Below, one piece after another: positions 5,621 through 24,335 of a stretch of 34,895 nucleotides of DNA. The notes under the pieces were generated by a model. That model was not told where the DNA came from, did no database searches, and saw only the letters and a program-made list of their open reading frames with translations. This DNA is from an uncultured Clostridia bacterium (lineage in GTDB: Bacteria; Bacillota; Clostridia; Oscillospirales; CAG-272), in the NCBI GenBank assembly GCA_944384555.1, contig CALWTV010000267.1:1-34895 (forward strand). Reading direction: 5' to 3'. How positions within the stretch are numbered: the first letter of the stretch is position 1; every line of letters begins with the position of its first letter. The position numbers and the translations under genes were made by a program.

Positions 5621-5638
5621 TAGAATATTACACAATTT

Positions 5639-5679
5639 AACGTGAGTCTGAAATTATAATCAAACTCACGTTATTTTTT
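5639..5679 (+). terminator. rho-independent terminator after coaW
   Basis: AACGTGAGT (5639-5647) pairs with ACTCACGTT (5664-5672), followed by ATTTTTT. Confidence 0.75.
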
Positions 5680-5703
5680 ATTAAAATTTATTTATTAAAA
5701 GAT

Positions 5704-6951
5704 TTATTTTTTAGGTTCACGTCTGTAATATTTATCGATTTCGTCTTTCATGTTTTGAGGAATTACTCTCGGAACCGGCATCATTTCAGCGTTGATTATT
5801 TTTTCAGCAAAAGCTTTCATATAACGCATTGTTTTTGCCATAGCCTGCGGACAGAGCGGCATTATCAAGTCATTGCGGTTATGAATTCCAGCCTGTCCCT
5901 GTCTTGCAAAGCTAAGCGCCGGTACCCCTGAATCGGCAAACGGAGTAGAATCGCTTGAATAAACTCCCTGGCTTATTCTGATTGAATGACGCATTTCACG
6001 TGCTAAATATTCCATAGCGCCCTGAAGTGAGTTGTCTGCGGTGTAACATGCGATATCATTTCCGAGTACTGTACCGGTCATATCGATATTTATGCAGAAC
6101 TGGTATTTTTCAAGTTCATCTTTATGTGCTGAAGTATACGCTTTGCTTCCTAAAAGTCCGAGTTCCTCAGAACCGCACCAAATAAATTTAAGTGTTCTTC
6201 TTGGAGGATTTTCTTTAAAGTGTCTGTAAAATTCCATTAAATCTGCTGAACCGGAGGCATTATCCCAAGCGCCTTTACTGAAAGGTACGCTGTCATAATG
6301 TGCAGTAAACGCAACAATTTCATCAGGAAAATCAGTGCCTTTTATTTCAGCTACAACATTATGAGATGTAAGCTTGAATTCGGTCTGACATAATTCCATT
6401 TTTACTTTTGAGGCTCCGTCGCGTACCATTTCGATAGCGTCACGTACACGCATTGTAACTCCGGGAATAGTTCCGTTTTCTATAAATAAATCTCGGATAT
6501 AGCGTTTGCTGAGGTCGGTTTTTTCAACTTCATCGATAAAGCTTCCGTCAAATAAAATAAAACCTGCCGCACCGCTTTTTACAAGACGCTTGTATACATC
6601 AAGCCCGAGTCCGTTAAGCATTACGATTTTGCCTTTCACATCGTAAAAATCGATTTCATCACCGTTTTCGATATATTTGAAAGGAGCAATTATTCCATTT
6701 TCGGGAGTAGAGCCGCTTCTGCCTACTCCGGTAACGGTAATTTCTCTTTCAAATGGTTCGAGTACTGTCAACTTTACTGATTTAACTTCATAATGAGTGA
6801 TTTCAAACGGTTCAAGCTGCGCTGTACCGCCCAGAGCTTCTACCTCAGATTTTAATATTTCTGCGGCGCGAAGCTCATCAGGAGTACCGCCCTGTCTGTT
6901 AAAATATAATTTTTCTATTATACCGTATTGATAAAGCCCGTTATTTTCCAT
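5704..6951 (-). CDS. M28 family metallo-aminopeptidase with PA domain
   Basis: 415 aa. HYDS, AWDNASG, GSEELGL(L)GS and a terminal DS..F/H region match the M28 zinc-ligand pattern. A central protease-associated insert is present. AGGAGA RBS. Confidence 0.8.
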   Translation of the reverse strand: MENNGLYQYGIIEKLYFNRQGGTPDELRAAEILKSEVEALGGTAQLEPFEITHYEVKSVKLTVLEPFEREITVTGVGRSGSTPENGIIAPFKYIENGDEIDFYDVKGKIVMLNGLGLDVYKRLVKSGAAGFILFDGSFIDEVEKTDLSKRYIRDLFIENGTIPGVTMRVRDAIEMVRDGASKVKMELCQTEFKLTSHNVVAEIKGTDFPDEIVAFTAHYDSVPFSKGAWDNASGSADLMEFYRHFKENPPRRTLKFIWCGSEELGLLGSKAYTSAHKDELEKYQFCINIDMTGTVLGNDIACYTADNSLQGAMEYLAREMRHSIRISQGVYSSDSTPFADSGVPALSFARQGQAGIHNRNDLIMPLCPQAMAKTMRYMKAFAEKIINAEMMPVPRVIPQNMKDEIDKYYRREPKK

Positions 6952-7116
6952 TTTATATTCTCCTGATATAAAAATTTAGTCGAAATTATTATATACGATA
7001 TTTCCAAAATAAACAACCCCTAAATTAATATTTAGATGAAATATATTCTTAAAACGTTAAAATATTTATAAATAATATAAAAATTTTATATAAATTACCC
7101 AAAGTAAAATTGTGTA

Positions 7117-7145
7117 TTGACAATTTATACAATATATGATAAGAT
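7117..7145 (+). promoter_or_regulatory. candidate sigma-A promoter (TTGACA-17 nt-TAAGAT)
   Basis: Perfect -35 TTGACA at 7117-7122, 17-nt spacer, TAAGAT at 7140-7145. It lies upstream of the DUF5050-like gene. Confidence 0.4.
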
Positions 7146-7212
7146 TAAATATAAAAAACTATTATTCCTGAATACTTTATATCAATAAGTAATACTAAAA
7201 GGATATGTGATA

Positions 7213-8421
7213 ATGCTTAATAGAAAAATTATATTTTTGCTCTCAATAATTTTAATTTTTATATTGTTAAGTAGCTGTGGAAAAATATCCCGAACCAATG
7301 ATGTAAAAACAAACTGCTCTTATAAGGAAAATACAATTGATATGCTAATTGAGGAGAGCAAGGTTCAATCACAAAATCTCCAATCTGTTGATAATGATAA
7401 TATAGATAAAAAATACGATTCAGAAAAGCTTGGATTTATGGGAGGCAATATTTCTGCCGGAGGGCTTATCAGCGGAGATGGCAATGGCTGGATTTATTAT
7501 CGCAGTGAGAATGATAACTGGTGTCTATATAAGGCAAAACTTGATGGTACTCAAAAAAATAAATTGTGCGATGATATACCATCATGCATAAATGTACTTG
7601 GCGACTGGGTTTATTATTCAAATTACAAGGACGGTTTTTCAATTTACCGAATTAAAAGTGATGGCTCAGAGAGAGAAAAGCTTGTCGATGGATACTGCCG
7701 AAATCTTTATGTAACAGAAAACGGTATGTATTTTGATATACGCGATGAAAATAATTCTCCGCAGGTTTATCATGCAAAACTTGACGGAACTGATAAAAAT
7801 CTTATCGTACAGGATATGAGGGTTGCGGCATATTATGATAAATCTTTATATTGCTATAATACAAAGACGTTAAAAAAATATGATAATGTTACTGGTGAAT
7901 TGGATATAATTTATGATGGGTATACGCATAATCATTACGCCGATATAAATGGAATTTATTTTTGGGCAGTTGATGATAATAAATATTATAAGATGGATTA
8001 TGATGGTAAATTAACCGAATTAGCTAAAAACGGAGATTCTTTTAATTATGCCGATGGCAAGTTATATTACATAGCTTTGAATGCAGATTCGTTTGATAAT
8101 TATTGTATGTATTGTCTTGATACAAAAACTATGGAAAAGAGCATAATTCTATCGCTTTCAGAGCAGTATTTTGATATTTATACAGGAGAAGCTCTCGGTA
8201 TTACAATAAAATATTTCCGTGAAAATTATGATAAAATCGATGCTTCTCTATTTGACCATTATGACGGAGCTTTTATTGGGATAAATGAACAAGCGGGGTA
8301 TCCTTATATAATTGAAGGCAGAGTATATTCACGAGGAGTATTAAAAGAAAGCAAAACAAAGAATGGCAGATGGGATTGCATTATTTTGTGCAACGGTAGC
8401 GGAGGCACTGTTTGGGATTGA
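7213..8421 (+). CDS. DUF5050-like beta-propeller lipoprotein
   Basis: Signal peptide plus lipobox (LLSSC). Repeated W/Y-YY...DG..K.KL modules (for example WIYYRS..., WVYYSN...IYRIKSDGSEREKL, MYFD...HAKLDGTDKN) are typical of DUF5050/TolB-like repeats. The track start is GTG 7207. ATG 7213 has better spacing to the AAAGGA RBS. Confidence 0.6.
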   Translation: MLNRKIIFLLSIILIFILLSSCGKISRTNDVKTNCSYKENTIDMLIEESKVQSQNLQSVDNDNIDKKYDSEKLGFMGGNISAGGLISGDGNGWIYYRSENDNWCLYKAKLDGTQKNKLCDDIPSCINVLGDWVYYSNYKDGFSIYRIKSDGSEREKLVDGYCRNLYVTENGMYFDIRDENNSPQVYHAKLDGTDKNLIVQDMRVAAYYDKSLYCYNTKTLKKYDNVTGELDIIYDGYTHNHYADINGIYFWAVDDNKYYKMDYDGKLTELAKNGDSFNYADGKLYYIALNADSFDNYCMYCLDTKTMEKSIILSLSEQYFDIYTGEALGITIKYFRENYDKIDASLFDHYDGAFIGINEQAGYPYIIEGRVYSRGVLKESKTKNGRWDCIILCNGSGGTVWD

Positions 8422-8488
8422 GTCTTACCGAAAAATTATGATTAAAATAAATTTTTCTAATAATTTATTCTTAATATATTAAAAAATT

Positions 8489-8520
8489 ACCGCTAAAATA
8501 AAATTAGCGGTTTTTATTTT
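8489..8520 (+). terminator. rho-independent terminator
   Basis: ACCGCTAA (8489-8496) pairs with TTAGCGGT (8504-8511), followed by a T-run. Confidence 0.75.
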
Positions 8521-8546
8521 TAGAATTAAATGAAAGGCAATTACGT

Positions 8547-9380
8547 ATGAATAAAATTATTACTGATAAAAAAACGGTAAAAGAAGTGCTGAACGATAAA
8601 AAGCTTTTTATATTCGATATGGACGGTACAATATATCTTGGAAAAAACGTATTTCCATTTGCCATTGATTTTATTAATCATTTGAGAAATGACGGACGGC
8701 AAATTTTATTTTTTACAAATAATGCGTCACATTCTACTGATTTTTATTACACAAAGCTTGAAAGAATTGGATTTTCTCCGAAAAAAGGTGAAATAATGAC
8801 ATCTGGAGATGTAACGATAGAATTTTTAAAGCGTTATCGCAAAGATAAAAGCGTTTATCTAGTAGGAACAGAAGAATTATGCGATTCTTTTAAAAATGCG
8901 GAAATTTGCCTTTTAAATGGCAGTGAAAAAAGTGCTGATATTGTCATTACAAGTTTTGATACCTCGCTTACATATGAAAAATTAAACAATGCATGCCGAT
9001 ATATTAGGAACGGAGCAGAATATTTATCAACTCATCCGGATTTCAATTGCCCTACCGAAGATGGATTTATTCCCGACAGTGGTGCAATTGCCGCATTTGT
9101 AACTACTTCCACTGGTATCATTCCCACATATTTCGGAAAACCTTATGAGGAAACGGTACAGATGATTTCAGAAACCTCAAACGTTAAAAGAAGTGATATG
9201 TGTATTTTTGGCGACAGGCTTTATACAGATATAGCAACGGGCAAGCGTCACGGAATAACCGCGGTTCTTGTATTGTCAGGTGAAACCCAGATTTCCGACC
9301 TTGAAAATGTGTGTGAATGTGATTACCCTGATATTGTATTAAACTCTCTTTTAGAAGCAGATGAGGCGATGTTTTTATAA
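8547..9380 (+). CDS. HAD-IIA family hydrolase (NagD-like sugar-phosphate phosphatase)
   Basis: 277 aa. Motif I FIFDMDGTIY, motif II FFTNNAS, and motif IV GDRLYTDI followed by VLSG are typical of subfamily IIA. Confidence 0.8.
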   Translation: MNKIITDKKTVKEVLNDKKLFIFDMDGTIYLGKNVFPFAIDFINHLRNDGRQILFFTNNASHSTDFYYTKLERIGFSPKKGEIMTSGDVTIEFLKRYRKDKSVYLVGTEELCDSFKNAEICLLNGSEKSADIVITSFDTSLTYEKLNNACRYIRNGAEYLSTHPDFNCPTEDGFIPDSGAIAAFVTTSTGIIPTYFGKPYEETVQMISETSNVKRSDMCIFGDRLYTDIATGKRHGITAVLVLSGETQISDLENVCECDYPDIVLNSLLEADEAMFL

Positions 9381-12354: not shown

Positions 12355-13284
12355 TTGAATATAACCCATCTAAAATATGCGGTTGAAGTTTCACGCACTG
12401 GCTCAATATCTCAGGCGGCAGAAAATCTATATATGAGCCAGCCTAATTTAAGCAAGGCAATACGGGAATTTGAAACCTCTCTCGGTTTTTCAATATTCAA
12501 GCGAAATTCAAAAGGAATAGAGCCTACTGAAAAAGGACAGGAATTTTTAAATTATGCCCGTGGAATAATCGCTCAAATTGATGAAATTGAAATGCTTTAT
12601 TCAGGAGAGAATACTCCTAAGGAGAAATTTAATATATCTGTTCCGCGCGCAAGCTATATATCATATGCCTTTACGAAATTCGTAAATAAACTTGCGCCGG
12701 AATCTGAAATTGAGCTTAAATTTAATGAAACTAATTCTATTTCAGCCGTAAACAATATTTGCGACGAAGATTACAGTCTAGGAATTATACGTTGCCAGAC
12801 TAAAAACAATGAATTTTATTTTCGTTTGCTGAAAGATAAGGGTATGTCATATAAAATGCTGTTTGAGTTTGAATACAGACTGCTTTTATCAAAAGACAGC
12901 CGTTTTGCTCAGTACGATGTTGTTCCTGCAAATGTGCTTTCGGAGGGAATAGAAATAGTGCATGGCGATTTGAAAGTACCGTTTCTTTCCAATAAAGAAG
13001 TTATTACAGATTCAGTGAAGCCCACAAAAAAGAAAATTTATGTATATGAACGAGGTAGCCAGTTTGACTTGCTCCGAAACGTAGACAATACCTATATGTG
13101 GGTATCTCCTATGCCGGAAGATACGCTTAAAAATTATGGTCTTATTCAAAAAAACAGTACCGCACAACGTAATAAATATAATGATATATTAGTATATGAA
13201 AAAAATCATCGTTTCTCCGACAATGAAACTTCTTTTTTGCATGAATTAGACAATGTAAAAAAAGAAATATCAAGAATAATATAG
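12355..13284 (+). CDS. LysR family transcriptional regulator
   Basis: 309 aa. N-terminal wHTH: L.Y...V...GS.S.AA..L..SQP.LS..I..(F/L)E..LG...F.R. TTG start 9 nt after AGGAG. Confidence 0.85.
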   Translation: MNITHLKYAVEVSRTGSISQAAENLYMSQPNLSKAIREFETSLGFSIFKRNSKGIEPTEKGQEFLNYARGIIAQIDEIEMLYSGENTPKEKFNISVPRASYISYAFTKFVNKLAPESEIELKFNETNSISAVNNICDEDYSLGIIRCQTKNNEFYFRLLKDKGMSYKMLFEFEYRLLLSKDSRFAQYDVVPANVLSEGIEIVHGDLKVPFLSNKEVITDSVKPTKKKIYVYERGSQFDLLRNVDNTYMWVSPMPEDTLKNYGLIQKNSTAQRNKYNDILVYEKNHRFSDNETSFLHELDNVKKEISRII

Positions 13285-13290
13285 AAAATA

Positions 13291-13333
13291 AACAGACATT
13301 ATCTATATATTAGTTAATGCCTGTTATTTTTTT
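13291..13333 (+). terminator. rho-independent terminator after the LysR gene
   Basis: AACAGACATTA (13291-13301) pairs with TAATGCCTGTT (13315-13325) with one mismatch, followed by ATTTTTTT. Confidence 0.7.
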
Positions 13334-13404
13334 ATATACAAATCGATATTTTTATATCGATAAAAATATATAAATAAATATATATCGATATAACCTATTT
13401 ATAT

Positions 13405-13433
13405 TTCAAATCATAAATAATATGTGATATAAT
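13405..13433 (+). promoter_or_regulatory. candidate rex promoter (TTCAAA-17 nt-TGaTATAAT)
   Basis: Extended -10 TGATATAAT ends at 13433, with a weak -35 TTCAAA at 13405-13410. The -10 is embedded in the TGTGAT/ATCACA palindrome. Confidence 0.4.
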
Positions 13434-13469
13434 ATAATCACAAGGTAAAAGGACAAGAGGTGAGAATGA

Positions 13470-14105
13470 ATGAATCAGTCGGTATCAAAAGCAACTTTGG
13501 GGCGACTTCCCATGTACCTTAGCTATTTGAAATCTATCCCGACAAAAGAAGTTACTAATATTTCTGCCGCTTCCATCGCTGAAGCTCTTAATCTGCATCC
13601 GGTTCAGGTTCGCAAGGATCTCGCCCTTATATCAGAAGGCGGAAAACCTAAAACAGGCTATGTTGCCGAAAATCTTTTAAGAGATCTTGAAAAATTTCTC
13701 GGATACAATAACGTAAACTGCGCGGTAATCGTTGGAGTAGGACATCTCGGACAGGCTCTGATGTCATACGAAGGTTTCAGTCAGTACGGTTTGAAAATAG
13801 TCGCTACTTTTGATGTGAAGGATACCTTGATTGACAAAGAAATTCATGGCAAAAAAGTTTTCTCCATTGATAAAATCCCTTATCTTTGTCCCAGACTTTG
13901 TGCCAATATAGGAATAATTACTGTACCTGCTGAAGCGGCTCAGTCCGTATGCGACAAACTTGTAGAAGCAGGTATACGGGCAATTTGGAATTTTGCTCCG
14001 GTGATTTTGAATGTTCCGGAGGGAATACTTGTTCAAAATGAAAATATGGCGGCATCGCTTGCTGTATTATCGAATCATTTATCAGAAACCATGAACAAAA
14101 GCTGA
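13470..14105 (+). CDS. rex: redox-sensing transcriptional repressor Rex
   Basis: 211 aa. N-terminal ATLGRLPMYLSYL wHTH followed by the Rossmann motif VGVGHLGQAL, which is characteristic Rex architecture. AGAGGTGA RBS. Confidence 0.9.
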   Translation: MNQSVSKATLGRLPMYLSYLKSIPTKEVTNISAASIAEALNLHPVQVRKDLALISEGGKPKTGYVAENLLRDLEKFLGYNNVNCAVIVGVGHLGQALMSYEGFSQYGLKIVATFDVKDTLIDKEIHGKKVFSIDKIPYLCPRLCANIGIITVPAEAAQSVCDKLVEAGIRAIWNFAPVILNVPEGILVQNENMAASLAVLSNHLSETMNKS

Positions 14106-14173
14106 GATTTTAATAATTTAATTAATTTTAAATTTGTATATTAAAATAAACCATATATAGAGGAGAAAAACCA

Positions 14174-16795
14174 ATGAGTGATAACAAAACAAACATTGTA
14201 AACACTGATATTGTAAACAATGGAGAAGCATTGGCAGCAAAAATTGCGCAGATAAGAGAAGCGCAGAAGAAATTTGCAACCTATACTCAGGAGCAGGTTG
14301 ACGCTATTTTTGCGGCAGCCGCATCAGCAGCCAACAAACAGCGTATACCTTTAGCTAAAATGGCAGTTGAAGAAACTGGTATGGGTGTTGTTGAAGATAA
14401 GGTAATCAAAAATCATTATGCGGCTGAGTACATTTACAACGCATATAAAAATACCAAAACATGCGGAGTAATTGAAGAAGATACCGCATATGGCATTAAG
14501 AAAATTGCTGAACCTATCGGTGTAATCGCAGCAGTTATTCCTACTACAAACCCTACATCTACTGCAATATTTAAAACTCTTATAGCTCTCAAAACCCGCA
14601 ATGGTATTATAATCAGCCCTCACCCCAGAGCAAAAGCTTGTACAATCGCAGCAGCTAAAGTTGTATATGAAGCAGCAGTTGCAGCTGGCGCTCCCGAAGG
14701 CATTATCGGTTGGATTGACGTTCCTTCACTTGAACTTACAACCACAGTTATGAAAGAAGCTGACATAATCCTCGCAACAGGTGGTCCCGGCATGGTTAAA
14801 TCCGCATATTCTTCTGGTAAACCTGCTGTCGGTGTAGGTGCGGGAAATACACCTGCTATCATTGACGATACCGCAGATATTCTTGTTGCTGTAAACTCAA
14901 TCATTCATTCAAAGACATTTGATAATGGTATGATTTGTGCTTCAGAACAGTCAGTAATCGTGCTTGAACCTGTTTACGAAAAGGTAAAAGCTGAATTTAA
15001 GGCTCGCGGCTGCTATTTCCTCAACCCCGATGAAACTGAAAAAGTTCGTAAAACTATATTAATCAACGGTGCGCTTAATGCTAAAATCGTTGGTCAGAGC
15101 GCACACAAAATTGCTGAACTTGCTGGAGTTTCTGTTCCTGAAAAAACAAAAATCCTTATCGGTGAAGTTGAAAGCGTAGAACTTGAAGAAGAGTTCGCAC
15201 ATGAAAAACTTTCTCCCGTACTTGCAATGTATAAGGCTAAATCCTTTACAGACGCACTTGATAAAGCAGAGCATCTTATCGCTGACGGTGGTTACGGTCA
15301 TACATCTTCCGTTTATCTCAACGCTACTACCGAAAAAGATAAACTCGCTGAGTTCAGCGCAAGAATGAAGACTTGCCGAATCCTTGTAAATACTCCTTCA
15401 TCACAAGGCGGTATCGGTGACCTTTACAACTTTAAACTTGCTCCGTCACTTACCCTCGGATGCGGTTCTTGGGGCGGCAACTCCGTTTCTGAAAACGTTG
15501 GAGTTAAACACCTTATCAATATCAAAACAGTAGCCGAGAGGAGAGAAAATATGCTTTGGTTCCGCACACCTTCAAAGGTTTATATGAAGAAAGGTTGTCT
15601 GCCCGTTGCTCTTGATGAGCTTAAGCACGTTATGGACAAGAAGAAAGTCTTCATAGTAACTGATGAATTCTTATACAAAAACAATTACACAAAGGCAATT
15701 ACAGATAAACTTGATGAAATGGGTATTCGTCATACCACATTCTGCGATGTTGCTCCCGACCCGTCACTTGCATGTGCTCTCGAAGGCGCTAAGGCAATGC
15801 GTTCATTTGAGCCTGACTGCATTATCGCACTCGGTGGTGGTTCCGCTATGGACGCAGGTAAAATTATGTGGGTAATGTACGAGCATCCCGAAGTTGACTT
15901 TATGGATATGGCGATGAGATTCGTTGATATTCGTAAGAGAGTATATACATTCCCGAAGATGGGCGAAAAAGCATTCTTTATTGCTGTTCCTACATCTGCT
16001 GGTACAGGTTCCGAAGTTACTCCGTTCGCGGTTATTACCGATGAAAAGACCGGTATTAAATATCCGCTTGCAGATTACGAACTTCTCCCCAATATGGCTA
16101 TCATTGACGCAGACCTTATGATGAATATGCCTCGCGGTCTTACAAGTGCATCAGGTATTGACGCAATGACTCATGCTCTCGAAGCATATGTCGCAATGCT
16201 CGCAACTCCTTATACAGACGGTCTTGCTCTTGAAGCACTTAAGCTTATCTTCAAATATCTGCCCAGAGCATACAATGATGGTGCTCATGACCCTGAAGCA
16301 AGAGAACAGATGGCTAATGCTTCAACTATGGCAGGTATGGCATTCGCAAACGCATTCCTCGGTGTATGCCACTCATTGGCTCATAAGCTCGGTGCGTTCC
16401 ATCATTTACCTCACGGTGTTGCAAATGCACTTATGATTAACGAAGTTATGAAATTCAATGCCGTTGATACTCCTGTTAAGATGGGAACATTCCCGCAGTA
16501 CGCTTATCCGCATACACTTGAAAGATATGCTCAGATTGCTGACGCTCTCGGACTCGGCGGCAAGACAAATGAAGAAAAATTCCAGAATCTGCTTAATGCA
16601 ATTGAAAAACTTAAAGAGACTGTTGGCATAAAGAAAACAATTAAAGATTACGGCGTTGACGAAGCTGACTTCCTTGCACGCCTTGATGAAATGGTTGAGC
16701 AGGCATTCGATGACCAGTGCACCGGCGCTAACCCCAGATACCCGCTTATGAGCGAGCTTAAAGAAATGTACCTTAATGCATATTACGGTAAATGA
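14174..16795 (+). CDS. adhE: bifunctional acetaldehyde-CoA/alcohol dehydrogenase
   Basis: 873 aa. N-terminal ALDH domain (catalytic MICASEQS) fused to a C-terminal iron-type ADH (GGGSAMDAGK, His-rich HSLAHKLGAFHHLPHG). Strong GAGGAGA RBS. Confidence 0.95.
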   Translation: MSDNKTNIVNTDIVNNGEALAAKIAQIREAQKKFATYTQEQVDAIFAAAASAANKQRIPLAKMAVEETGMGVVEDKVIKNHYAAEYIYNAYKNTKTCGVIEEDTAYGIKKIAEPIGVIAAVIPTTNPTSTAIFKTLIALKTRNGIIISPHPRAKACTIAAAKVVYEAAVAAGAPEGIIGWIDVPSLELTTTVMKEADIILATGGPGMVKSAYSSGKPAVGVGAGNTPAIIDDTADILVAVNSIIHSKTFDNGMICASEQSVIVLEPVYEKVKAEFKARGCYFLNPDETEKVRKTILINGALNAKIVGQSAHKIAELAGVSVPEKTKILIGEVESVELEEEFAHEKLSPVLAMYKAKSFTDALDKAEHLIADGGYGHTSSVYLNATTEKDKLAEFSARMKTCRILVNTPSSQGGIGDLYNFKLAPSLTLGCGSWGGNSVSENVGVKHLINIKTVAERRENMLWFRTPSKVYMKKGCLPVALDELKHVMDKKKVFIVTDEFLYKNNYTKAITDKLDEMGIRHTTFCDVAPDPSLACALEGAKAMRSFEPDCIIALGGGSAMDAGKIMWVMYEHPEVDFMDMAMRFVDIRKRVYTFPKMGEKAFFIAVPTSAGTGSEVTPFAVITDEKTGIKYPLADYELLPNMAIIDADLMMNMPRGLTSASGIDAMTHALEAYVAMLATPYTDGLALEALKLIFKYLPRAYNDGAHDPEAREQMANASTMAGMAFANAFLGVCHSLAHKLGAFHHLPHGVANALMINEVMKFNAVDTPVKMGTFPQYAYPHTLERYAQIADALGLGGKTNEEKFQNLLNAIEKLKETVGIKKTIKDYGVDEADFLARLDEMVEQAFDDQCTGANPRYPLMSELKEMYLNAYYGK

Positions 16796-16821
16796 GTTTT
16801 TGAAAGAAAGGTGCAATATTG

Positions 16822-17571
16822 ATGAATTTAGATAGAGTTATAGCAGTAAGAAATGATAAAACCGTATATCGTGACGGTGATCTTGCAATCAAGGTTTTTA
16901 ACGAAGACTATTCAAAGGCAAATGTATTGAACGAGGCATTAAATCAATCGAGAGTTGAGGAAACCGGACTTGCAATTCCGAAAATTCATGAAGTTACCCT
17001 GATTGACGGTAAATGGGCAATCGTTTATGATTATATCAAAGGCAAAACTCTCGCAGAGCTTATGGAAAAAAATCCTGACAAAATGGACGAATATCTTGAG
17101 CTTTTCGTAAATCTTCAGATTGAAATGCACTCTAAAAAAGCTCCTATGCTCGGTAAATTAAAAGATAAGATGACTCGTAAAATCAGCGAATCATCACTTG
17201 ACGCTACCACAAGATATGAACTCCATATGCGTCTTGATTCCATGCCTAAGCACGATAAGGTATGCCACGGCGACTATAACCCCAGTAATATAATCATTAC
17301 AGATGATGGCACTCCTTATATTCTTGACTGGTCTCATGCAACTCAAGGCAATGCTTCTGCGGACGTTGCACGCACTTACCTCCTGTTCTGCCTTGCTGGA
17401 GATAAGGAACTTGCAGATAAATATCTTAAGTTATTCTGTCAGAAGAGCGATACCCCTGTTCAGTATGTGAACAAATGGCTCCCGATTGTAGCCGCATCAC
17501 AATCAGTTAAAGGCAAACCCGAAGAACGTGAATTCCTCCTCAAATGGGTTAACGTTGTAGAGTACGAATAA
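16822..17571 (+). CDS. APH/choline-kinase family phosphotransferase (protein-kinase-like fold), substrate unknown
   Basis: About 249 aa. Brenner-type catalytic motif CHGDYNPSNIII followed by YILDW (HxDxxxxN...D). AAAGGTG RBS 7 nt before ATG 16822; the track begins one codon earlier at TTG 16819. Only 26 nt lie between the adhE stop and this start. Confidence 0.7.
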   Translation: MNLDRVIAVRNDKTVYRDGDLAIKVFNEDYSKANVLNEALNQSRVEETGLAIPKIHEVTLIDGKWAIVYDYIKGKTLAELMEKNPDKMDEYLELFVNLQIEMHSKKAPMLGKLKDKMTRKISESSLDATTRYELHMRLDSMPKHDKVCHGDYNPSNIIITDDGTPYILDWSHATQGNASADVARTYLLFCLAGDKELADKYLKLFCQKSDTPVQYVNKWLPIVAASQSVKGKPEEREFLLKWVNVVEYE

Positions 17572-17581
17572 TTATTGTTAT

Positions 17582-17621
17582 GAGGAGGCAGCTTGATAAA
17601 AGTTACCTCCTCTAATTTTTT
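17582..17621 (+). terminator. rho-independent terminator or attenuator between the kinase gene and the hydrogenase-sensor cluster
   Basis: GAGGAGG (17582-17588) pairs with CCTCCTC (17606-17612), followed by TAATTTTTT. Confidence 0.75.
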
Positions 17622-17657
17622 ACATAAAATAATTTATATTTTAAAGGAGACTTGAAA

Positions 17658-17900
17658 ATGAATATCTCTATTTGTGTATGCACAGCTTGCCACGTAAACG
17701 GAGCTAAGGACATTGTTGAAAAACTTCAGAATCTTGTTGCTGAAAACAATCTCGGCGATAAAGTTGAACTCAAGGCCTCTTTCTGCGACGGAGACTGCAA
17801 AGACGGAGTATATGTTACTGTTGATGGAAAGGGATTTTCGCTCACAGCAGATAAAGTAGAAGAATTTTTTAAGGTAAACGTAATCGATAAACTCGCGTAA
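17658..17900 (+). CDS. thioredoxin-like [2Fe-2S] ferredoxin (HfsA/NuoE-like small protein), copy 1
   Basis: 80 aa from ATG 17658 (AAAGGAGA RBS 7 nt upstream; the track start TTG 17652 is less likely). Cys pattern C-x4-C ... C-x3-C (CVCTAC ... CDGDC). Confidence 0.7.
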   Translation: MNISICVCTACHVNGAKDIVEKLQNLVAENNLGDKVELKASFCDGDCKDGVYVTVDGKGFSLTADKVEEFFKVNVIDKLA

Positions 17901-17913
17901 GGAGAAATTTAAG

Positions 17914-18153
17914 ATGACAATTAACGTATGTGTAGGAAGCTCATGTCATCTCAGAGGCTCTTATAAAATAATTGAGCTTATGACCGAAGCATTGAAAAAA
18001 AACGGACTCGAAGATAAGGTTGAACTCAGCGCGGCTTTCTGTCTTGGAAAATGCACTCATGGCGTGTCAATAAAGGTTGATGACGAAGTTATATGCGGCG
18101 TTTCTCCTGAGAACTTTAATGAAATTTTTGACAAGTACGTACTGAAAAAATAA
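17914..18153 (+). CDS. thioredoxin-like [2Fe-2S] ferredoxin (HfsA/NuoE-like small protein), copy 2
   Basis: 79 aa paralog of the preceding ORF. Same C-x4-C ... C-x3-C spacing (CVGSSC ... CLGKC). AAGGAGA RBS. Confidence 0.7.
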   Translation: MTINVCVGSSCHLRGSYKIIELMTEALKKNGLEDKVELSAAFCLGKCTHGVSIKVDDEVICGVSPENFNEIFDKYVLKK

Positions 18154-18203
18154 TTTAGATAAAAATTTTAAATGTTATTAAAAGTCAGAGGGGAGAATCT
18201 GAA

Positions 18204-19886
18204 TTGAATGAGTATCTGAAACTGAAAAAATCAAACTGCAAAAACTGCTACAAATGTATACGGAGCTGTCCCGTAAAATCAATAAAATTTTCTGACAATC
18301 AAGCACATATTGTAGGCGATGAATGTATTCTCTGCGGCGAATGTTTTGTTGTATGTCCGCAAAATGCTAAGGAAATACGAAATGATGTACAGACCGTAAA
18401 AAAACTTATTGCGTCCGGAACACGCGTTATCGCCAGTGTTGCACCTTCATTTACTGCAAATTACAGCGGAAGCACCATAACAGGTATGAGGAATACTCTG
18501 AAAAAGCTTGGTTTCTTTGATGCTTTTGAAACAGCGTCAGGTGCTGCCGATGTTAAAAACGCATATGACAAAATGATAGAAGAAGAAAAACAGGATGTTA
18601 TAATTTCAACCTGCTGTCATTCCATTAATCTGCTCATTCAAAAACATTATCCCGAAGCAATTAAATATCTTGCCCCTGTGATTTCTCCCATGCACGCTCA
18701 TTGTCTTGCAATAAAGAATAAATATCCCGATGCTAAAACCGTATTCATAGGACCATGTATATCTAAAAAAGCAGAAGCTGATCTGTATTCTGATGCGGTT
18801 GACTGCGCAATTACTTTTGAAGAGCTTACAGAGTGGTTGTATGATGAAAAATTAACGGTTGATTCCACTCCGGACCCTGAGGATATTAATGCTGGTAAAG
18901 CAAGAATGTTCCCGACTACGGGAGGAATTCTCAAAACTATGAAGTGCAGCAGCGAAAAGTATCAGTATCTCGCAATTGACGGGGTTATGAACTGTATAAG
19001 TGCTATAAAAGATATAATAAATGGAAATATTTCAAATTGCTTTATAGAAATGTCAGCTTGTGTAGGAAGCTGTATCGGCGGACCTGCAATGGATGAAGAT
19101 AACCGTGCTCCAGTGCGTGATTATATAGCGGTTGATAAATATTCACTTGACGGTGATTTCAAGCTTGATTTCCATGCGGCTGAAACAACTCCTAAGGAAT
19201 TCAGCTTTATAGGTGCGCGTCGTCAAATGCCGGGAAGCTCTGCAATTGCTGAAATACTAAAGAAAATGGGCAAAACTTCACCGAAACAGGAGCTTAACTG
19301 CGGCAGCTGCGGATATAATACTTGCCGTGAAAAAGCTATTGCGGTTATTAACGGAAAAGCTGATCTCACAATGTGTCTGCCATTCCTTAAAGAAAAAGCT
19401 GAGTCATTCTCAGATAATATTATTCAAAATACACCCAATGGAATTATTGTACTTAATGAAAATCTTGAGGTTCAGCAGATAAATAAGGCTGCCTGCAATA
19501 TGATAAACATTCAGAATGCTTCAGATATACTCGGAGACCAGGTAGTACGAATTCTCGACCCTCAGCCTTTCTTTGAAGTCGTTCAAACCGGACGCAATAT
19601 TCACGATAAACGTATATATCTTGCGGAATATGACTGTTATATAGAAGAAACTGTGATTTATGATAAGGAATATCATATAGTCATGTGTATGATGCGAGAT
19701 GTTACCGATGAAGAAAGACAGCGTATAAAACGTGAGAATATTTCAAAACAGACAATTGAAACTACTGATAAAGTTATTGAAAAACAAATGCGTATAGTTC
19801 AGGAAATAGCATCACTTCTCGGTGAGACCACGGCGGAAACAAAGATTGCACTTACAAAGCTAAGGGAGTCACTTAAAAATGATTAA
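18204..19886 (+). CDS. hydS: putative sensory [FeFe]-hydrogenase with C-terminal PAS domain (HydS / HfsB-like, group C architecture)
   Basis: 560 aa. It has two CxxCxxCxxxCP ferredoxin motifs and H-cluster motifs STCCH, GPCISKKAE and EMSACVGSCIGGP. A Cx2Cx4Cx16C motif (aa 366-391) and a PAS-like domain with a helical tail follow. TTG start 8 nt after GAGGGGAG. Confidence 0.85.
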   Translation: MNEYLKLKKSNCKNCYKCIRSCPVKSIKFSDNQAHIVGDECILCGECFVVCPQNAKEIRNDVQTVKKLIASGTRVIASVAPSFTANYSGSTITGMRNTLKKLGFFDAFETASGAADVKNAYDKMIEEEKQDVIISTCCHSINLLIQKHYPEAIKYLAPVISPMHAHCLAIKNKYPDAKTVFIGPCISKKAEADLYSDAVDCAITFEELTEWLYDEKLTVDSTPDPEDINAGKARMFPTTGGILKTMKCSSEKYQYLAIDGVMNCISAIKDIINGNISNCFIEMSACVGSCIGGPAMDEDNRAPVRDYIAVDKYSLDGDFKLDFHAAETTPKEFSFIGARRQMPGSSAIAEILKKMGKTSPKQELNCGSCGYNTCREKAIAVINGKADLTMCLPFLKEKAESFSDNIIQNTPNGIIVLNENLEVQQINKAACNMINIQNASDILGDQVVRILDPQPFFEVVQTGRNIHDKRIYLAEYDCYIEETVIYDKEYHIVMCMMRDVTDEERQRIKRENISKQTIETTDKVIEKQMRIVQEIASLLGETTAETKIALTKLRESLKND

Positions 19887-21057
19887 CTTATGTACCGATA
19901 TAGGCTACCACAGCCTGAATAAATTCGGAGAGCAGCTCTGCGGAGACCACGTTGATGTAGTAGAGCAGGAGGGCGATGGCAATTCTGTAATTGTAGTGCT
20001 TGCGGACGGAATGGGAAGCGGCGTAAAAGCAAGTATATTATCTACGCTGACTTCAAAAATTATTTCTACCATGATGGCGCAGTCAATGTCAATTGAAGAA
20101 TGTGTCGCAACAATTGCATCTACACTGCCGGTATGTTCGGTCAGAGGAGTTGCATATTCCACATTTACAATTATTAAAGTAACAAATAATTACGAAGCGG
20201 AAATTATACAGTACGATAATCCTCATGTAATTATGCTCAGAGACGGCAAATACTTTGATATGGAAGAAACTTCAACTAAAATTGGAGATAAGATAATATA
20301 CAAATCAAAAGTATATGTACGTGAGGGCGATACGTTTATCGCGATGAGTGACGGGGCAATTCATGCCGGAGTAGGAAAGAGTCTGAATTTTGGATGGCAG
20401 AGAGAAAACATTATTGAATTTATGGAAATGATGTATGATTCTGAATTTACTGCGAAAACGCTCTCTACAATCCTGCTTGATGAATGCAATCGCTTATATG
20501 AGAATGAGCCGGGAGACGACACTACTGTATGTACTGTTAAAATACGTCAGCGTGAATCAGTGAATTTGATGATAGGACCGCCTGCATCTCCTAATGATGT
20601 AAACAAAATGATGAGTTTGTTTTTCTCAAAAAGCGGAAAGCATATTGTTTGCGGAGGTACAACGTCGACTCTCGCCGCCGAATTTTTGGGCAAGGAAGTA
20701 AAAACAAATCTTATGTATATTGACCCTGAAATTCCTCCTACTGCGACTATTGAGGGAGTTGATTTGGTTACCGAGGGCGTAATTACAATAAATAAGGTAT
20801 TGACATATGCTCAGAGTTATCTTGCAGATAATCAGTATTATACGCATTGGGATTATAAAAAAGACGGCGCGTCACTTATATCAAAAATGCTGTTTGAAGA
20901 AGCTACCGATATAAACTTTTATGTAGGACGTGCGGTAAATCCGGCACATCAGAATCCGAATCTTCCTATAAATTTCAGTATAAAAATGCGTTTGGTAGAT
21001 GAGCTTTGCGAATGTCTTAAAAAGATGGGCAAACGGATAAAGGTAAGTTATTTTTAA
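19879..21057 (+). CDS. SpoIIE/PP2C-family serine phosphatase with C-terminal domain of unknown function (HfsC-like)
   Basis: 392 aa. PP2C metal-binding motifs LADGMGSG, AMSDGAIH and GDDTTV. The start overlaps the hydS stop by 8 nt (ATGATTAA), which suggests translational coupling. AAGGGAG RBS. Confidence 0.85.
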   Translation: MINLCTDIGYHSLNKFGEQLCGDHVDVVEQEGDGNSVIVVLADGMGSGVKASILSTLTSKIISTMMAQSMSIEECVATIASTLPVCSVRGVAYSTFTIIKVTNNYEAEIIQYDNPHVIMLRDGKYFDMEETSTKIGDKIIYKSKVYVREGDTFIAMSDGAIHAGVGKSLNFGWQRENIIEFMEMMYDSEFTAKTLSTILLDECNRLYENEPGDDTTVCTVKIRQRESVNLMIGPPASPNDVNKMMSLFFSKSGKHIVCGGTTSTLAAEFLGKEVKTNLMYIDPEIPPTATIEGVDLVTEGVITINKVLTYAQSYLADNQYYTHWDYKKDGASLISKMLFEEATDINFYVGRAVNPAHQNPNLPINFSIKMRLVDELCECLKKMGKRIKVSYF

Positions 21058-21113
21058 TTTTTCAAATATATTTAAAGAAGTGAAAGAAATATTAGTTTAT
21101 AGGGAGGAATATC

Positions 21114-21764
21114 GTGCGTAAATTTGATACGAAAGTCCAGCTTTTAAAATATAAAGTTCTAAGAGAGGTTGCGCGTCTCAGTTTTAATGACCAATTGCTT
21201 GAGCATTACAACGATATTCCCAAAATAATCGTTGAAGGAAAAACTCCTACAATGCGCTGCTGTATCTATAAGGAGCGTGCAATTGTATCAGAGCGCATTA
21301 AGCTTGCGACAGGCGGAGATAAATCTAATCCCAATGTTATTGAGGTAATAGATATAGCGTGTGATGAATGTCCGGTAGGCGGATATGAAGTCAGCGATGC
21401 TTGCCGCGGCTGTATTGCTCATCGCTGCGAAGAAGTGTGCAAGCGAAATGCGATAAAGTTTGATGAACACCAAAAGGCGCATATAGATAAATCATTATGT
21501 GTTGAATGTGGAGCCTGCGCAAAAGTTTGTCCGTACAGCGCAATTGTAAACCGCAAGCGTCCATGTGAAAATGCCTGCAAGATTAAAGCGATAAGTATGA
21601 GCGAATCCAAAGCGGCACAAATTGATAATAATAAATGTATTGCCTGCGGTGCTTGTGTATATCAGTGTCCGTTCGGCGCGATTATGGATAAATCTTTCAT
21701 AATCGACGTTGTGGACTTAATTAAAAAGACCAAAAACAATACCGCTTACAAGCATTATGCCTAA
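21114..21764 (+). CDS. N-terminal fragment of the [FeFe]-hydrogenase: poly-FeS ferredoxin-like region (216 aa)
   Basis: Contains two CxxCxxCxxxCP motifs plus additional Cys clusters. It ends at the internal TAA. Confidence 0.5.
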   Translation: MRKFDTKVQLLKYKVLREVARLSFNDQLLEHYNDIPKIIVEGKTPTMRCCIYKERAIVSERIKLATGGDKSNPNVIEVIDIACDECPVGGYEVSDACRGCIAHRCEEVCKRNAIKFDEHQKAHIDKSLCVECGACAKVCPYSAIVNRKRPCENACKIKAISMSESKAAQIDNNKCIACGACVYQCPFGAIMDKSFIIDVVDLIKKTKNNTAYKHYA

Positions 21765-21875
21765 GTTGCTCCTTCTATTTCCAGCCAGTTCACATATGCG
21801 AAATTAGGTCAGGTAATAAGCGGAATTAGAGAGCTCGGTTTCTATCATGTAATTGAGGCTGCTCTCGGTGCTGAT

Positions 21876-22547
21876 ATGGTAGCATTTGAGGAATCAAAGG
21901 AACTTGTTGAAAAAGGATTTTTGACCAGTTCATGCTGTCCGGCTTTTGTAATGTATATCGAAAAGCAGTTCCCGCAGCTTGTTGATAAAATATCACATAA
22001 TCTTTCGCCTATGGCGATGATAGCTAAATATATTAAAAAGAGTGACCCAACAGCGAAAATTGTGTTTATCGGTCCGTGTACTGCGAAAAAAGCCGAGTTT
22101 CAGAAAGAAACGGTTAGACCTTATATTGACTGCGTAATTACATTTGAAGAATTGCAGGCTCTCATTGATAGCCGTGACATTGATATAACTACACTTCAAG
22201 AAGACGTTCTTGACAATGCTTCGTATTACGGAAGAATATTTGCGAGAAGCGGTGGATTGGCTGATGCGGTAAATCAGGCATTGAAAGAGCAGGGAATTAC
22301 CGATTTCAAATATAATCCGATAGCGTGTGACGGAATCGAGGCGTGCAGAACCGCGTTATTGAAAGCTTCAAAGAATGTACTGCCAAATAACTTTATTGAA
22401 GGAATGGCTTGTATAGGAGGGTGTATAGGCGGTGCAGGTTGTCTTACACATGGTGAAAAGAATAAAGCCGAAGTCGATAAGTACGGAATGGAAGCATATG
22501 AAAAATCGATAGAGGACGCAATCGCTATTTACAAAAATATAGATTAA
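21876..22547 (+). CDS. C-terminal fragment of the [FeFe]-hydrogenase: H-cluster domain (longest ATG-initiated ORF)
   Basis: Carries the TSSCCP, GPC..KK.E and MACIGGCIGG motifs. There is no RBS before ATG 21876 and no ATG/GTG/TTG in frame between 21765 and 21875, so independent translation is doubtful. Confidence 0.4.
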   Translation: MVAFEESKELVEKGFLTSSCCPAFVMYIEKQFPQLVDKISHNLSPMAMIAKYIKKSDPTAKIVFIGPCTAKKAEFQKETVRPYIDCVITFEELQALIDSRDIDITTLQEDVLDNASYYGRIFARSGGLADAVNQALKEQGITDFKYNPIACDGIEACRTALLKASKNVLPNNFIEGMACIGGCIGGAGCLTHGEKNKAEVDKYGMEAYEKSIEDAIAIYKNID

Positions 22548-22567
22548 TTTCTAAGTGTAATAAAAAT

Positions 22568-22601
22568 AAGAGGACAATTGCTAATATGCAAAAGTCCTCT
22601 T
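22568..22601. terminator. bidirectional terminator between the hydrogenase gene (+) and mgtE (-)
   Basis: AAGAGGAC (22568-22575) pairs with GTCCTCTT (22594-22601). Both flanks are T/A-rich. Confidence 0.7.
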
Positions 22602-22616
22602 TATTAATTTAAATTT

Positions 22617-24008
22617 TTATATATGCAGAATTAAAGATGCTATTTTAAAATAAACAAGTAATGCAAGCGTGTCAACAATTGTAGTAATAAATGGACTTGC
22701 CATTACAGCGGGGTCAAATCCTATTTTTTTTGCGAAAATGGGAAGTACACAACCGGATAATTTTGAAATTAATACTACACATATTAAAGTCAAGCATACT
22801 ACAACGGCTATCTTAATAGATGTGTGGTCGATAACCATCATTTTTGCGAAATTCACAGCGGCAAGCGTAATTCCGCAGAAAAAAGCCACCACAGTTTCTT
22901 TTCCCATTATTTTAAATATATCTCTCATTCCTATTTCGCCGAGCGAGAGACCGCGTATTACAGTAACAGAAGACTGACTGCCTGCATTTCCTCCGGTATC
23001 CATAAGCATTGGAATAAACGCAGTAAGAGCTACCTGAGCCGCAAGCGCGGTTTCAAAATGAGTTAGAATTTTGCTTGTAAAAGTTGCCGATACCATAAGC
23101 AACAGCAACCATGGAATTCGCTTTCTAAAAGTTTCAAAAACGCCTGTTTTTATATATGATTTTTCAGTTGGAGTAATTGCCGCCATCATTTCAATGTCTT
23201 CATTGACTTCATCAGTCATTACGTCCATTGCATCATCTACGGTAATTATTCCTACAAGACGATTTTCATTGTCAACTACAGGAAGTGCTAAAAAATCATA
23301 TTTGCTGAATATATTTGCGACATTTTCTTTATCTTCAAGCGTTGTTACTGAAATAACGTTTTTCTCCATTATTTCTTCAATCAATACATCATCTTCGGAT
23401 AAAAGCAAGTCTTTTGCGGTAACAAGTCCGATAAGCTTGCGTTTTTCATCGGTGACATAACATGTATAGATTGTTTCTTTATCTACGCCGGTACTGCGGA
23501 TTTTTGAAAAAGCCTCACTTATTGTCATAGCTGCTTTCAATTCCACAAATTCGATTGTCATAATCGAACCAGCACTGTCTTTAGGATAGTGCAGTATCTG
23601 GTTTATTACCCCGCGCATTTCCGAATCAGTATGAGCCAATATTCTTGTAACTACATTTGCCGGCATTTCTTCAATTAAATCAACCGTATCATCGACAAAT
23701 AATTCATCAATTACTTCTTCAAGCTCACGGTCATTGAATACGTCAATCAAAAATTTCTGCATAACGCTGTCCATCTCAACAAATGTCTGAGCAGCAAGTT
23801 CTTTAGGAAGCAATCTGAAAACAATTAAAATTTTATCTTCCGGTAAATTTTCCATTACAAGCGCGATGTCCTTTGGATGAATATCGCAAAGCAACTGACG
23901 TAAATCTTTTAATTTCTTTTCTTCAAGCAGATTATTCGCTTTTTCAGAAATTTCCTCGATATCATTGATATCGGTAAATGCAGTTGATAAAATCATCATT
24001 TCTTCCAT
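22617..24008 (-). CDS. mgtE: magnesium transporter MgtE
   Basis: N-domain (HPKDIA), tandem CBS domains, and a C-terminal 5-TM MgtE domain (DTGGNAGSQS). The likely start is the ATG at 24008 (MEEMMILS...). The track's 26-codon upstream extension overlaps a leader hairpin. Confidence 0.9.
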   Translation of the reverse strand: MEEMMILSTAFTDINDIEEISEKANNLLEEKKLKDLRQLLCDIHPKDIALVMENLPEDKILIVFRLLPKELAAQTFVEMDSVMQKFLIDVFNDRELEEVIDELFVDDTVDLIEEMPANVVTRILAHTDSEMRGVINQILHYPKDSAGSIMTIEFVELKAAMTISEAFSKIRSTGVDKETIYTCYVTDEKRKLIGLVTAKDLLLSEDDVLIEEIMEKNVISVTTLEDKENVANIFSKYDFLALPVVDNENRLVGIITVDDAMDVMTDEVNEDIEMMAAITPTEKSYIKTGVFETFRKRIPWLLLLMVSATFTSKILTHFETALAAQVALTAFIPMLMDTGGNAGSQSSVTVIRGLSLGEIGMRDIFKIMGKETVVAFFCGITLAAVNFAKMMVIDHTSIKIAVVVCLTLICVVLISKLSGCVLPIFAKKIGFDPAVMASPFITTIVDTLALLVYFKIASLILHI

Positions 24009-24011
24009 TTT

Positions 24012-24335
24012 GTTGTTACTGCCCTCAATTTTTAAAATACTGAGAGCAGCCCCTCCTTTCAATTTAATGTGTAATGTTAGATTCAATCAGAACCTAATTC
24101 AAACACGCAATTTAGCAGATATGACGGAGAACCGTCCATACCCAAGGAAGGGGACAATTTGTGAAAGTCCAAAACTTGCGCAGTAATCTATTTAATTTTC
24201 AAAAAAGCAAACCAAACAGACGTCCTGCGGTCTGCAATAAAGTGCGGAGCACGGAAAAATATTATTGCAATTTGACATACACAATCGCCCTTTGGGTTTA
24301 CTGCTGCCTGCGTCCATTTGATTCACTCCTTTTCT
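24012..24335 (-). promoter_or_regulatory. structured 5' leader of mgtE (unclassified candidate riboswitch/attenuator)
   Basis: A GC-enriched block sits in an otherwise AT-rich 620-nt intergenic region. It has nested long-range complementarity (24097-24179 with 24267-24315) and local hairpins. A U-G pair in the SD-sequestering hairpin (24019-24049) fits the minus-strand RNA only. Confidence 0.4.

Follow-up and report, generated by a model that had tools for sequence, protein, structure and literature searches.

A HydS-PP2C cluster beside rex and adhE in an uncultured Clostridia bacterium: a putative H2 sensor and candidate routes for its output

We analysed a stretch of 34,895 nucleotides from an uncultured Clostridia bacterium (CAG-272; contig CALWTV010000267.1), hereafter the window, which carries a gene cluster for HydS, a putative sensory [FeFe]-hydrogenase homologue, and for a phosphatase of the PP2C/SpoIIE type; all positions refer to the whole stretch. 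Genes were identified from a list of open reading frames (ORFs) together with Pfam and NCBIfam scans of the window's proteins. Nine co-directional genes on the + strand span 12355-22547 and encode, in order, a LysR-family regulator, the redox-sensing repressor Rex, the bifunctional dehydrogenase AdhE, a small phosphotransferase (here the kinase), two thioredoxin-like [2Fe-2S] proteins, HydS, the PP2C and a HydA2-like group B [FeFe]-hydrogenase. An initial annotation of this DNA had set the last five genes directly downstream of rex-adhE-kinase, and the Pfam and NCBIfam matches on 13470-17571 bear this out. The ORFs and Pfam matches likewise agree with its two [2Fe-2S] proteins, its HydS with a Cx2Cx4Cx16C motif and PAS domain, and its overlapping phosphatase gene; its monomeric hydrogenase is the exception, as that gene carries an in-frame TAA.

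The partial pressure of H2 sets what fermenters release in gut and rumen, acetate and H2 or ethanol and lactate, with consequences for methane output and biofuel yields. To our knowledge, the HydS-PP2C pair is the only candidate H2 sensor of the [FeFe] type.

A putative sensory hydrogenase and its coupled phosphatase

The hydS gene (18204-19886, + strand) encodes a protein of 560 amino acids, with two N-terminal 4Fe-4S motifs, the hydrogenase domain Fe_hyd_lg_C (E 6e-46), a PF04060 "FeS" domain (E 6e-11) spanning CGSCGYNTC-x16-C, which forms the Cx2Cx4Cx16C cluster motif, a PAS domain (E 5e-6) and a C-terminal helical tail. Aligned to the hydrogenase CpI, its loops read STCCHS (L1), GPC (L2) and EMSAC (L3), and the H-cluster cysteines of these loops (CC in L1, GPC in L2, C..C in L3) are kept in all or nearly all of 73 HydS-family sequences. 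Met353 of CpI is replaced by Gly and Met497 by Ser, and the proton-pathway positions E279, E282, R286 and S319 become N, D, M and A, respectively; the equivalent of C299 is a retained Cys. The G, S and A substitutions are conserved in 72-73 of the 73 family sequences, and the four cysteines of Cx2Cx4Cx16C are invariant. Gly at M353, Ser at M497, an altered proton pathway, and an extra cluster with a PAS domain are published traits of sensory [FeFe] hydrogenases, among which Cys at the C299 position is a minority state found in 17% of sequences (PMC10055695).

HydS scores well under the cutoffs of the NCBIfam catalytic models, with 80 bits against 406 for group A and 191 bits against 450 for B1. 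HydDB names [FeFe] group C3 "phosphatase-linked (putative)" (PMC5037454), and, judged by its residues, its domains and the adjoining phosphatase gene, we expect the window HydS to belong to this group. The initial annotation had proposed a sensory type from the architecture, and the CpI-aligned residues, the extra four-cysteine cluster and the PAS domain support it; the protein does not look like a group A enzyme with an intact proton pathway, all four pathway positions being replaced. H2 sensing by sensory [FeFe] hydrogenases is itself still only theorised in the literature (PMC10055695; 2024 review).

Immediately upstream of hydS lie the genes of two proteins of ~80 amino acids, both on the + strand and both with a Cx4C...Cx3C pattern. 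The first starts at 17652 (or 17658), ends at 17900 and resembles the C-terminal domain of NuoE/HydC (PF01257, E 2e-6); the second spans 17914-18153 (PF01257, E 2.3e-10).

Downstream, the ATG of the PP2C gene lies inside the end of hydS (aATGATTAA), an overlap of 8 nucleotides by which the two genes are translationally coupled. Residues 1-224 of the 392-residue product (19879-20550, + strand) form the phosphatase domain (PF07228, E 2.5e-15); an AlphaFold2 (AF2) model of this domain, with a predicted local distance difference test (pLDDT) score of 84.5, matched SpoIIE (5mqh/5ucg) and 3pu9 in Foldseek at E 1e-14 to 1e-12; with RsbX-type structures included, the matches to SpoIIE and its like run from E 1e-14 to 1e-9. 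Across phyla, 40 homologues show no variation at D23, D43-G44, D158 and D213-D214. From the motifs GD, DGxG, DG and DD we take the aspartates to be the metal-binding residues of SpoIIE, so that all of these are present on alignment. Their invariance across phyla argues for genuine phosphatase chemistry, and the active site is predicted with confidence to be catalytically competent.

The remainder of the protein, residues 225-392 (20551-21057, + strand), is a second domain of 168 residues. Its AF2 model (pLDDT 88) has an alpha/beta fold with 68 invariant columns, and the motifs HIVCGGTTS, VDLVTEGV and NPAHQNP vary little or not at all. Among database clusters for the PP2C, the top 120 are all of ~390 amino acids and 71-86% identical, Chloroflexota included. 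A fold search of the domain against the PDB gave no significant match, the best weak one being methylglyoxal synthase (1wo8, E 9e-3, TM-score 0.43/0.54). A SIS-like phosphosugar domain, to which the loop VCGGTTS had pointed, was unsupported: the fold search returned weak methylglyoxal-synthase, UbiX and Rossmann-like matches.

In a search of 1.8 billion representative proteins the C-terminal domain was found in 1047 clusters (50% identity, E<=1e-3). Among the 150 matches listed, the full-length ones are PP2C fusions with the domain at ~225-390 of ~390 amino acids, and the others are short or partial. We considered a free-standing family of such domains and rejected it. The two cases on long contigs that we checked, of six or seven, are split genes within the cluster: in one (L085) the domain is a separate gene (6001-6498) after a PP2C of 216 amino acids, and the other (L086) is a low-quality assembly. 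Most other short matches lie on short contigs, some of them labelled partial. This domain may serve in docking or in ligand binding.

Conservation of the pair and its known relatives

We compared the window with 82 loci, the 80 that best match its PP2C and two plasmid loci; the denominators below count loci with enough flanking sequence. At least 563 genomes in a scan of species representatives hold a relative of the window PP2C. The pairing is conserved without exception, hydS lying directly upstream of the phosphatase gene in 72/72 loci, and a [2Fe-2S] gene precedes hydS in 71 of 72, with two such genes in 40. HydA2 follows the phosphatase in 63 of 73 loci. In three others (L006, L022 and L043) it is replaced by NuoE-like, NuoF-like and HydA genes and a small [2Fe-2S] gene, which look like a hydrogenase of the trimeric, bifurcating type (HydC-HydB-HydA); a hydrogenase gene thus follows the phosphatase in ~90% of loci. 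Rex (17/52 loci), an upstream LysR (22/51) and the AdhE-kinase pair (18/53) are accessory, and the AdhEs of related clusters are 76-83% identical to that of the window. When unassigned flanking ORFs were clustered all against all, the recurrent neighbours were metabolic only: NfnA-like proteins, lactate dehydrogenase (LDH) and ArgH. Genes for LDH and NfnA/NfnB-like proteins are the commonest unrelated neighbours (flanks of L042, L050, L055, L066, L073 and others), so the cluster tends to sit among electron-sink genes.

The usual partners of PP2C phosphatases are missing from these neighbourhoods. Pfam found no STAS protein, RsbW-type kinase or sigma factor in the whole window, as the initial annotation had stated; its further claim that DNA-binding proteins are absent does not hold, LysR and Rex both being present. 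Among 277 small flanking ORFs of the 82 loci, the recurrent Pfam families (>=2 members) included neither STAS nor HATPase_c_2, and extracytoplasmic function (ECF) sigma factors made up 3 of 150 flanking ORFs. The window PP2C thus shares the SpoIIE/RsbU-type fold and the metal-binding aspartates with the systems SpoIIE-SpoIIAA-SpoIIAB-sigmaF and RsbU/RsbP-RsbV-RsbW-sigmaB, but the STAS protein, anti-sigma kinase and sigma factor of those systems are absent from the window, and no canonical partner-switching set recurs beside the 82 loci. The accessory domains differ too: partner-switching phosphatases have an N-terminal regulatory domain, whereas that of the window PP2C is C-terminal and of a different fold.

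With HydS as the query, tblastn against plasmid records found pRUMAL01 of Ruminococcus albus 7, at 58.5% identity. Its gene order matches the window (LysR-Rex-AdhE-phosphotransferase-2Fe2S-2Fe2S-HydS-SpoIIE-HydA2, with a HydA2 of 478 amino acids), and the proteins of the two loci are 58% (HydS), 62% (PP2C), 73% (HydA2), 76% (AdhE) and 69% (kinase) identical. Greening et al. (2019) described a putative eight-gene cluster in R. albus whose expression dropped 111-fold when an H2 consumer was grown alongside, and suggested that the group C hydrogenase, with its phosphatase subunit, senses H2 directly (PMC6776011); later papers name the cluster the HydS/HydA2 unit. From gene order and identities, the window locus is a chromosomal orthologue of this H2-responsive cluster, with no new architecture. 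The R. albus genes (RUMAL_RS17345-17385) share its order, orientation and domains and have the same TATCGATA element, described below, upstream of rex. The two differ in that the R. albus cluster lies on a megaplasmid and the window copy is chromosomal, beside yabP-yqfD-phoH-ybeY-era-recO; in that the gap between the kinase and first [2Fe-2S] genes is 80 nucleotides with a terminator-like hairpin in the window and 17 nucleotides without one in R. albus; and in that hydA2 of the window, as sequenced, is not intact. H2-responsive transcription is known for the R. albus cluster only. The initial annotation had presented the locus as a puzzle: the gap in understanding is real, but the arrangement is not new, being that of the published R. 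albus 7 cluster in identical order.

The hfsABCD operon of Thermoanaerobacterium saccharolyticum is a second relative, likened by description. Published equivalences make HfsB the HydS (with PAS), HfsC the serine phosphatase and HfsD the HydA2; HfsA has been described as resembling no known protein, whereas the window has two clear thioredoxin-like [2Fe-2S] proteins. These equivalences, with the residues and domains above, agree with the earlier match to group C sensory hydrogenases and to hfsABCD. Genetics tie the hfs operon to the balance of ethanol, H2 and lactate: hfsB deletion raised hydrogenase activity and ethanol yield only where hfsC and hfsD were intact, and deletion of hfsC or of hfsD gave the same lactate phenotype (PMC5707799). 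This fits a HydS that restrains a PP2C needed for HydA2 function.

The sensory [FeFe] hydrogenase that has been characterised biochemically is HydS of Thermotoga maritima (TmHydS), which shares with the window HydS the H-domain, extra cluster and PAS, Gly at M353, Ser at M497 and altered E279, E282 and S319. At the C299 position TmHydS has Ala and the window HydS Cys (PMC10055695), and the likeness of the window subtype to it is one of sequence. A similar logic operates in HoxBC-HoxJ-HoxA of Ralstonia eutropha, where a low-activity hydrogenase homologue signals the presence of H2 to a phospho-signalling enzyme in control of hydrogenase expression (PMC5707799). The proteins are unrelated, however: [NiFe] against [FeFe], a histidine kinase and response regulator against a PP2C, and an output protein that is known in the Ralstonia system.

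These relatives bear on whether the module senses at all. The [2Fe-2S] proteins, HydS, PP2C and HydA2 could instead be a working multi-subunit "Hfs hydrogenase", with HydS serving as a second subunit for catalysis or electron transfer and the PP2C-like protein as a structural or maturation component. The four genes do travel together, with translational coupling, HfsABC is possibly a functional hydrogenase without HfsD (PMC13277313), and the window HydS keeps the Cys at CpI-C299, unlike most sensory enzymes. We nevertheless regard this as very unlikely: the catalytic aspartates of the PP2C are invariant across phyla, HydS has a PAS domain and has lost the canonical proton-pathway residues, characterised HydS enzymes are very low in activity (2024 review), and hfsB deletion raised, rather than lowered, hydrogenase activity (PMC5707799).

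Two modules and their local regulators

The adhE gene (14174-16795, + strand; Aldedh, Fe-ADH and ADH_Fe_C domains) is followed by the kinase gene (16819-17571, + strand), whose product is APH/RIO-like (PF01636, E 2e-15; TIGR02172-like) and carries the motifs HGDYNPSN and DW. Its nearest families in NCBIfam and family searches are mixed: TIGR02172, Bud32, choline kinase and aminoglycoside kinases. A database copy has 249 amino acids, which likely puts the start at ATG 16822 rather than at the TTG 16819 chosen by the ORF finder. In related loci the kinase follows adhE in 18/18 cases, and four loci have the kinase without adhE. Three loci of Candidatus Howiella (L091-L093, genes 5380-8750) carry the adhE-kinase pair and lack hydS, PP2C and hydA2 for 8 kb around it, which makes the kinase an AdhE companion able to exist apart from the sensor module. 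It thus tracks adhE rather than the PP2C, and a simple kinase/phosphatase pair is not established.

This distribution speaks for a post-translational alternative, in which AdhE would be a phosphoprotein: the kinase would phosphorylate it, the HydS-controlled PP2C would reverse this, and ethanol formation would be tuned after translation. Besides the constant position of the kinase after adhE and its travel with adhE alone, hfsB deletions raised the NADH-linked alcohol dehydrogenase activity and left aldehyde dehydrogenase activity unchanged, from which the authors infer post-transcriptional control of AdhE (PMC5707799). Yet the kinase family (APH, choline-kinase-like, Bud32/RIO-like) includes many small-molecule kinases, so that its substrate may not be a protein, the AdhE-kinase pair lies beside only about one third of hydS-PP2C loci, and the kinase also occurs where adhE does not. 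We think this improbable.

The gap that follows the kinase gene, upstream of the first [2Fe-2S] gene, holds a terminator-like hairpin with a U-run (17577-17625, + strand). It folds at -18.2 kcal/mol (z -3.9), and none of 200 shuffled sequences folds as well. The hairpin suggests two transcription units, or attenuation. Since the kinase is tied to adhE and the hairpin precedes the [2Fe-2S] genes, the locus divides most naturally into two modules with local regulators: lysR followed by rex-adhE-kinase, and fdx-fdx-hydS-pp2c-hydA2, where fdx denotes the [2Fe-2S] genes.

Two DNA-binding proteins head the first module. The LysR-family regulator (12355-13284, + strand) was identified by PF00126 HTH_1 (E 1.6e-18), and Rex (13470-14105, + strand), of a cluster-borne subtype, by PF06971, PF02629 and NF003994 (284 bits, cutoff 130). 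A sigma-70-like rex promoter (TTCAAA-17-TATAAT with a TG) was predicted by consensus scan at 13405-13433 on the + strand. A palindrome TGTGAT-N8-ATCACA at 13423-13442 overlaps the -10 of this promoter; its spacing is 4 bp above that of a Rex or CRP/FNR site.

Tandem TATCGATA palindromes (13341-13390, with no strand assigned) lie immediately 5' of the -35, as four half-sites, one of them degenerate, in a 14-bp phase. The window holds three matches to TATCGATA where 0.03 are expected, and the element recurs in R. albus and in ~20 other loci (4276-4298 in L001, for example), 80-130 nucleotides before the first cluster gene. It is present in 15/18 clusters with rex and in 4/34 without (Fisher p 5e-7), a stronger tie than that to lysR (13/23 with, 6/29 without). 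No description of the motif was found in the literature that we searched. The canonical Rex operator TTGTKAA-N4-TTMACAA has no match with <=1 mismatch in the window, and matches with <=3 mismatches are at chance level. By contrast, a Rex box TTGTTAA-N4-TTAACAA lies upstream of adhE in all eight rex-less adhE clusters (L007, L008, L009, L021, L040, L060, L080 and L082), and these eight have no TATCGATA element. Clusters with adhE therefore seem to use two alternative promoter designs, and we propose the TATCGATA tandem repeat as a candidate operator distinct from the Rex box. We also considered a recognition helix in Rex specialised for TATCGATA; the comparison was uninformative because the cluster Rex proteins with and without the motif share an N-terminal signature.

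A conserved candidate operator raises the possibility that the output is transcriptional: the HydS-gated PP2C would alter the phosphorylation of LysR, of the cluster-type Rex or of an unlinked regulator, which would act at TATCGATA and turn the cluster on at high H2. The steep fall of the R. albus cluster at low H2 (PMC6776011), the 2-3 fold rise of adhE transcripts in hfsA and hfsB deletion strains (PMC5707799), the activator-like placement of the element (-40 to -90 relative to the rex promoter), and its tie to rex clusters and, less strongly, to lysR all favour this. On the other hand, Rex and LysR regulators normally answer to NADH or small ligands and not to phosphorylation, each is absent from more than half of the hydS-PP2C neighbourhoods, and the NADH response of Rex alone could explain the transcript changes with no input from HydS. 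A transcriptional output of this kind is possible, though on balance rather unlikely.

The interrupted hydA2 and the proposed output

The hydA2 gene (21114-22547, + strand; TIGR04105) reads as two ORFs of 216 and 223 amino acids, since codon 217 is a TAA (21762-21764). This position holds V, I, L or M in all 64 full-length HydA2 homologues; three codons earlier the window has His, where the others have V, L or M. Conservation of the two halves (73% and 75% identity) equals that of intact homologues, and they score 254 and 241 bits against TIGR04105 (FeFe_hydrog_B1), which sets its cutoff of 450 for one protein. Unlike HydS, HydA2 keeps the equivalents of C299, E279, E282 and S319, with R286 as K. 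A frameshift in place of the stop is ruled out, as the ORFs share one frame, and so is recoding of TAA, which ends the kinase, PP2C and hydA2 genes; the window has no transfer RNA genes. For a second assembly covering the stop, exact-protein look-ups gave only two contigs of 3.2-3.6 kb, both of which break off after 92 codons of hydA2; database records contain neither of the hydA2 fragments, and the DNA pattern around the stop was unmatched in JGI metagenomes.

With both halves equally conserved, the evidence points to an error or to a nonsense mutation of very recent date; in the first case a base was miscalled, in the second this strain has a disabled output arm. If the stop is real, the strain lacks the proposed output hydrogenase, an echo of the hfs mutations repeatedly selected in Thermoanaerobacterium, and the module might be decaying here, as an incipient pseudogene cluster or by adaptive loss like that in engineered Thermoanaerobacterium. 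For such decay speak the stop itself, at a position otherwise filled by V, I, L or M, its being the usual stop codon of neighbouring genes, and the repeated spontaneous mutation of hfs genes (PMC5707799; 2026 genetics paper). Against it, this is a single lesion in a cluster whose other genes are all intact, the two halves show no loss of conservation, and an error of sequencing or assembly is just as possible, no second assembly covering the site. We regard decay as a serious possibility that stops somewhat short of even odds.

How the signal leaves HydS was stated to be unknown in a 2024 review, as was the mechanism of the hfs mutations in a 2026 genetics paper; the gap noticed in the initial annotation is thus genuine and was already recognised in the literature up to 2026. 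Our comparison narrows the search: no partner switch is encoded beside the pair, a hydrogenase is the constant neighbour, the kinase goes with adhE, and the PP2C C-terminal domain and the promoter element offer further handles. As a further copy of a widespread cluster, the locus brings new leads in that domain, the adhE-linked kinase, the TATCGATA candidate operator and the interrupted hydA2.

We suggest that HydS binds H2 at its H-cluster, as its sequence and the published biochemistry of TmHydS would allow, and that, having an H-cluster without a fast proton pathway, it would report H2 rather than turn it over. The extra [4Fe-4S] cluster would relay the redox state to PAS and the C-terminal helix, with the small [2Fe-2S] proteins exchanging electrons with HydS, and the PAS output would gate the translationally coupled PP2C. 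By the absence of STAS and anti-sigma proteins, the PP2C would feed no partner switch and may act on HydA2 or on a HydA2-bound factor. The HydS-PP2C pair would then be a product-feedback governor of H2 evolution, and adhE would follow through NADH sensed by Rex and through a regulator at the TATCGATA candidate operator. We put the probability that HydS-PP2C is an H2 sensor in this general sense at roughly 0.7; for the object of the PP2C, HydA2 or a HydA2-bound factor is our most likely candidate, but the choice is tentative, and we would not be surprised to see it fail. The initial annotation had inferred an H2-partial-pressure sensor controlling the AdhE and hydrogenase electron sinks through a phosphoprotein. 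Its sensor-type HydS, competent PP2C and lack of a partner switch stand, and its picture is complicated by a hydrogenase that is broken as sequenced, by Rex, LysR and a conserved non-Rex candidate operator in the cluster, and by a kinase tied to adhE.

Several points weigh against a sensor acting on HydA2. Because of its stop codon, hydA2 may leave the proposed output to fail in this very organism, and in 7 of the 73 loci the PP2C is not followed by a hydrogenase gene. Phosphorylation of HydA2, HydS, AdhE or Rex is itself still hypothetical. The 100-fold change of R. albus transcripts needs a DNA-binding effector, and a transcriptional target of the PP2C explains it equally well; the substrate could also be encoded elsewhere in the genome. 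Finally, the sampled loci, being the 80 best matches to the PP2C, are taxonomically clustered.

A bolder form of the proposal would make the HydS-linked PP2C a new type of phosphatase effector, whose C-terminal domain docks or senses its partner and which acts directly on HydA2, on kinase-phosphorylated AdhE or on both, with transcription controlled by an undescribed regulator and the 14-bp-phased TATCGATA repeats. We consider this unlikely; if true, it would mean H2-controlled post-translational regulation of electron sinks without a partner switch.

The rest of the window, with yabP, yqfD, phoH, ybeY, era, recO, mutS2 and mgtE, is unremarkable chromosomal DNA of a spore-forming member of the Clostridia. 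An ORF of 486 amino acids at 2189-3649 has no Pfam match at E<=1e-4. At the other end of the cluster, mgtE (22617-24086, - strand) converges with hydA2, and the hairpin between them (22552-22611, with no strand assigned; -17.9 kcal/mol, z -5.3) is likely a bidirectional terminator.

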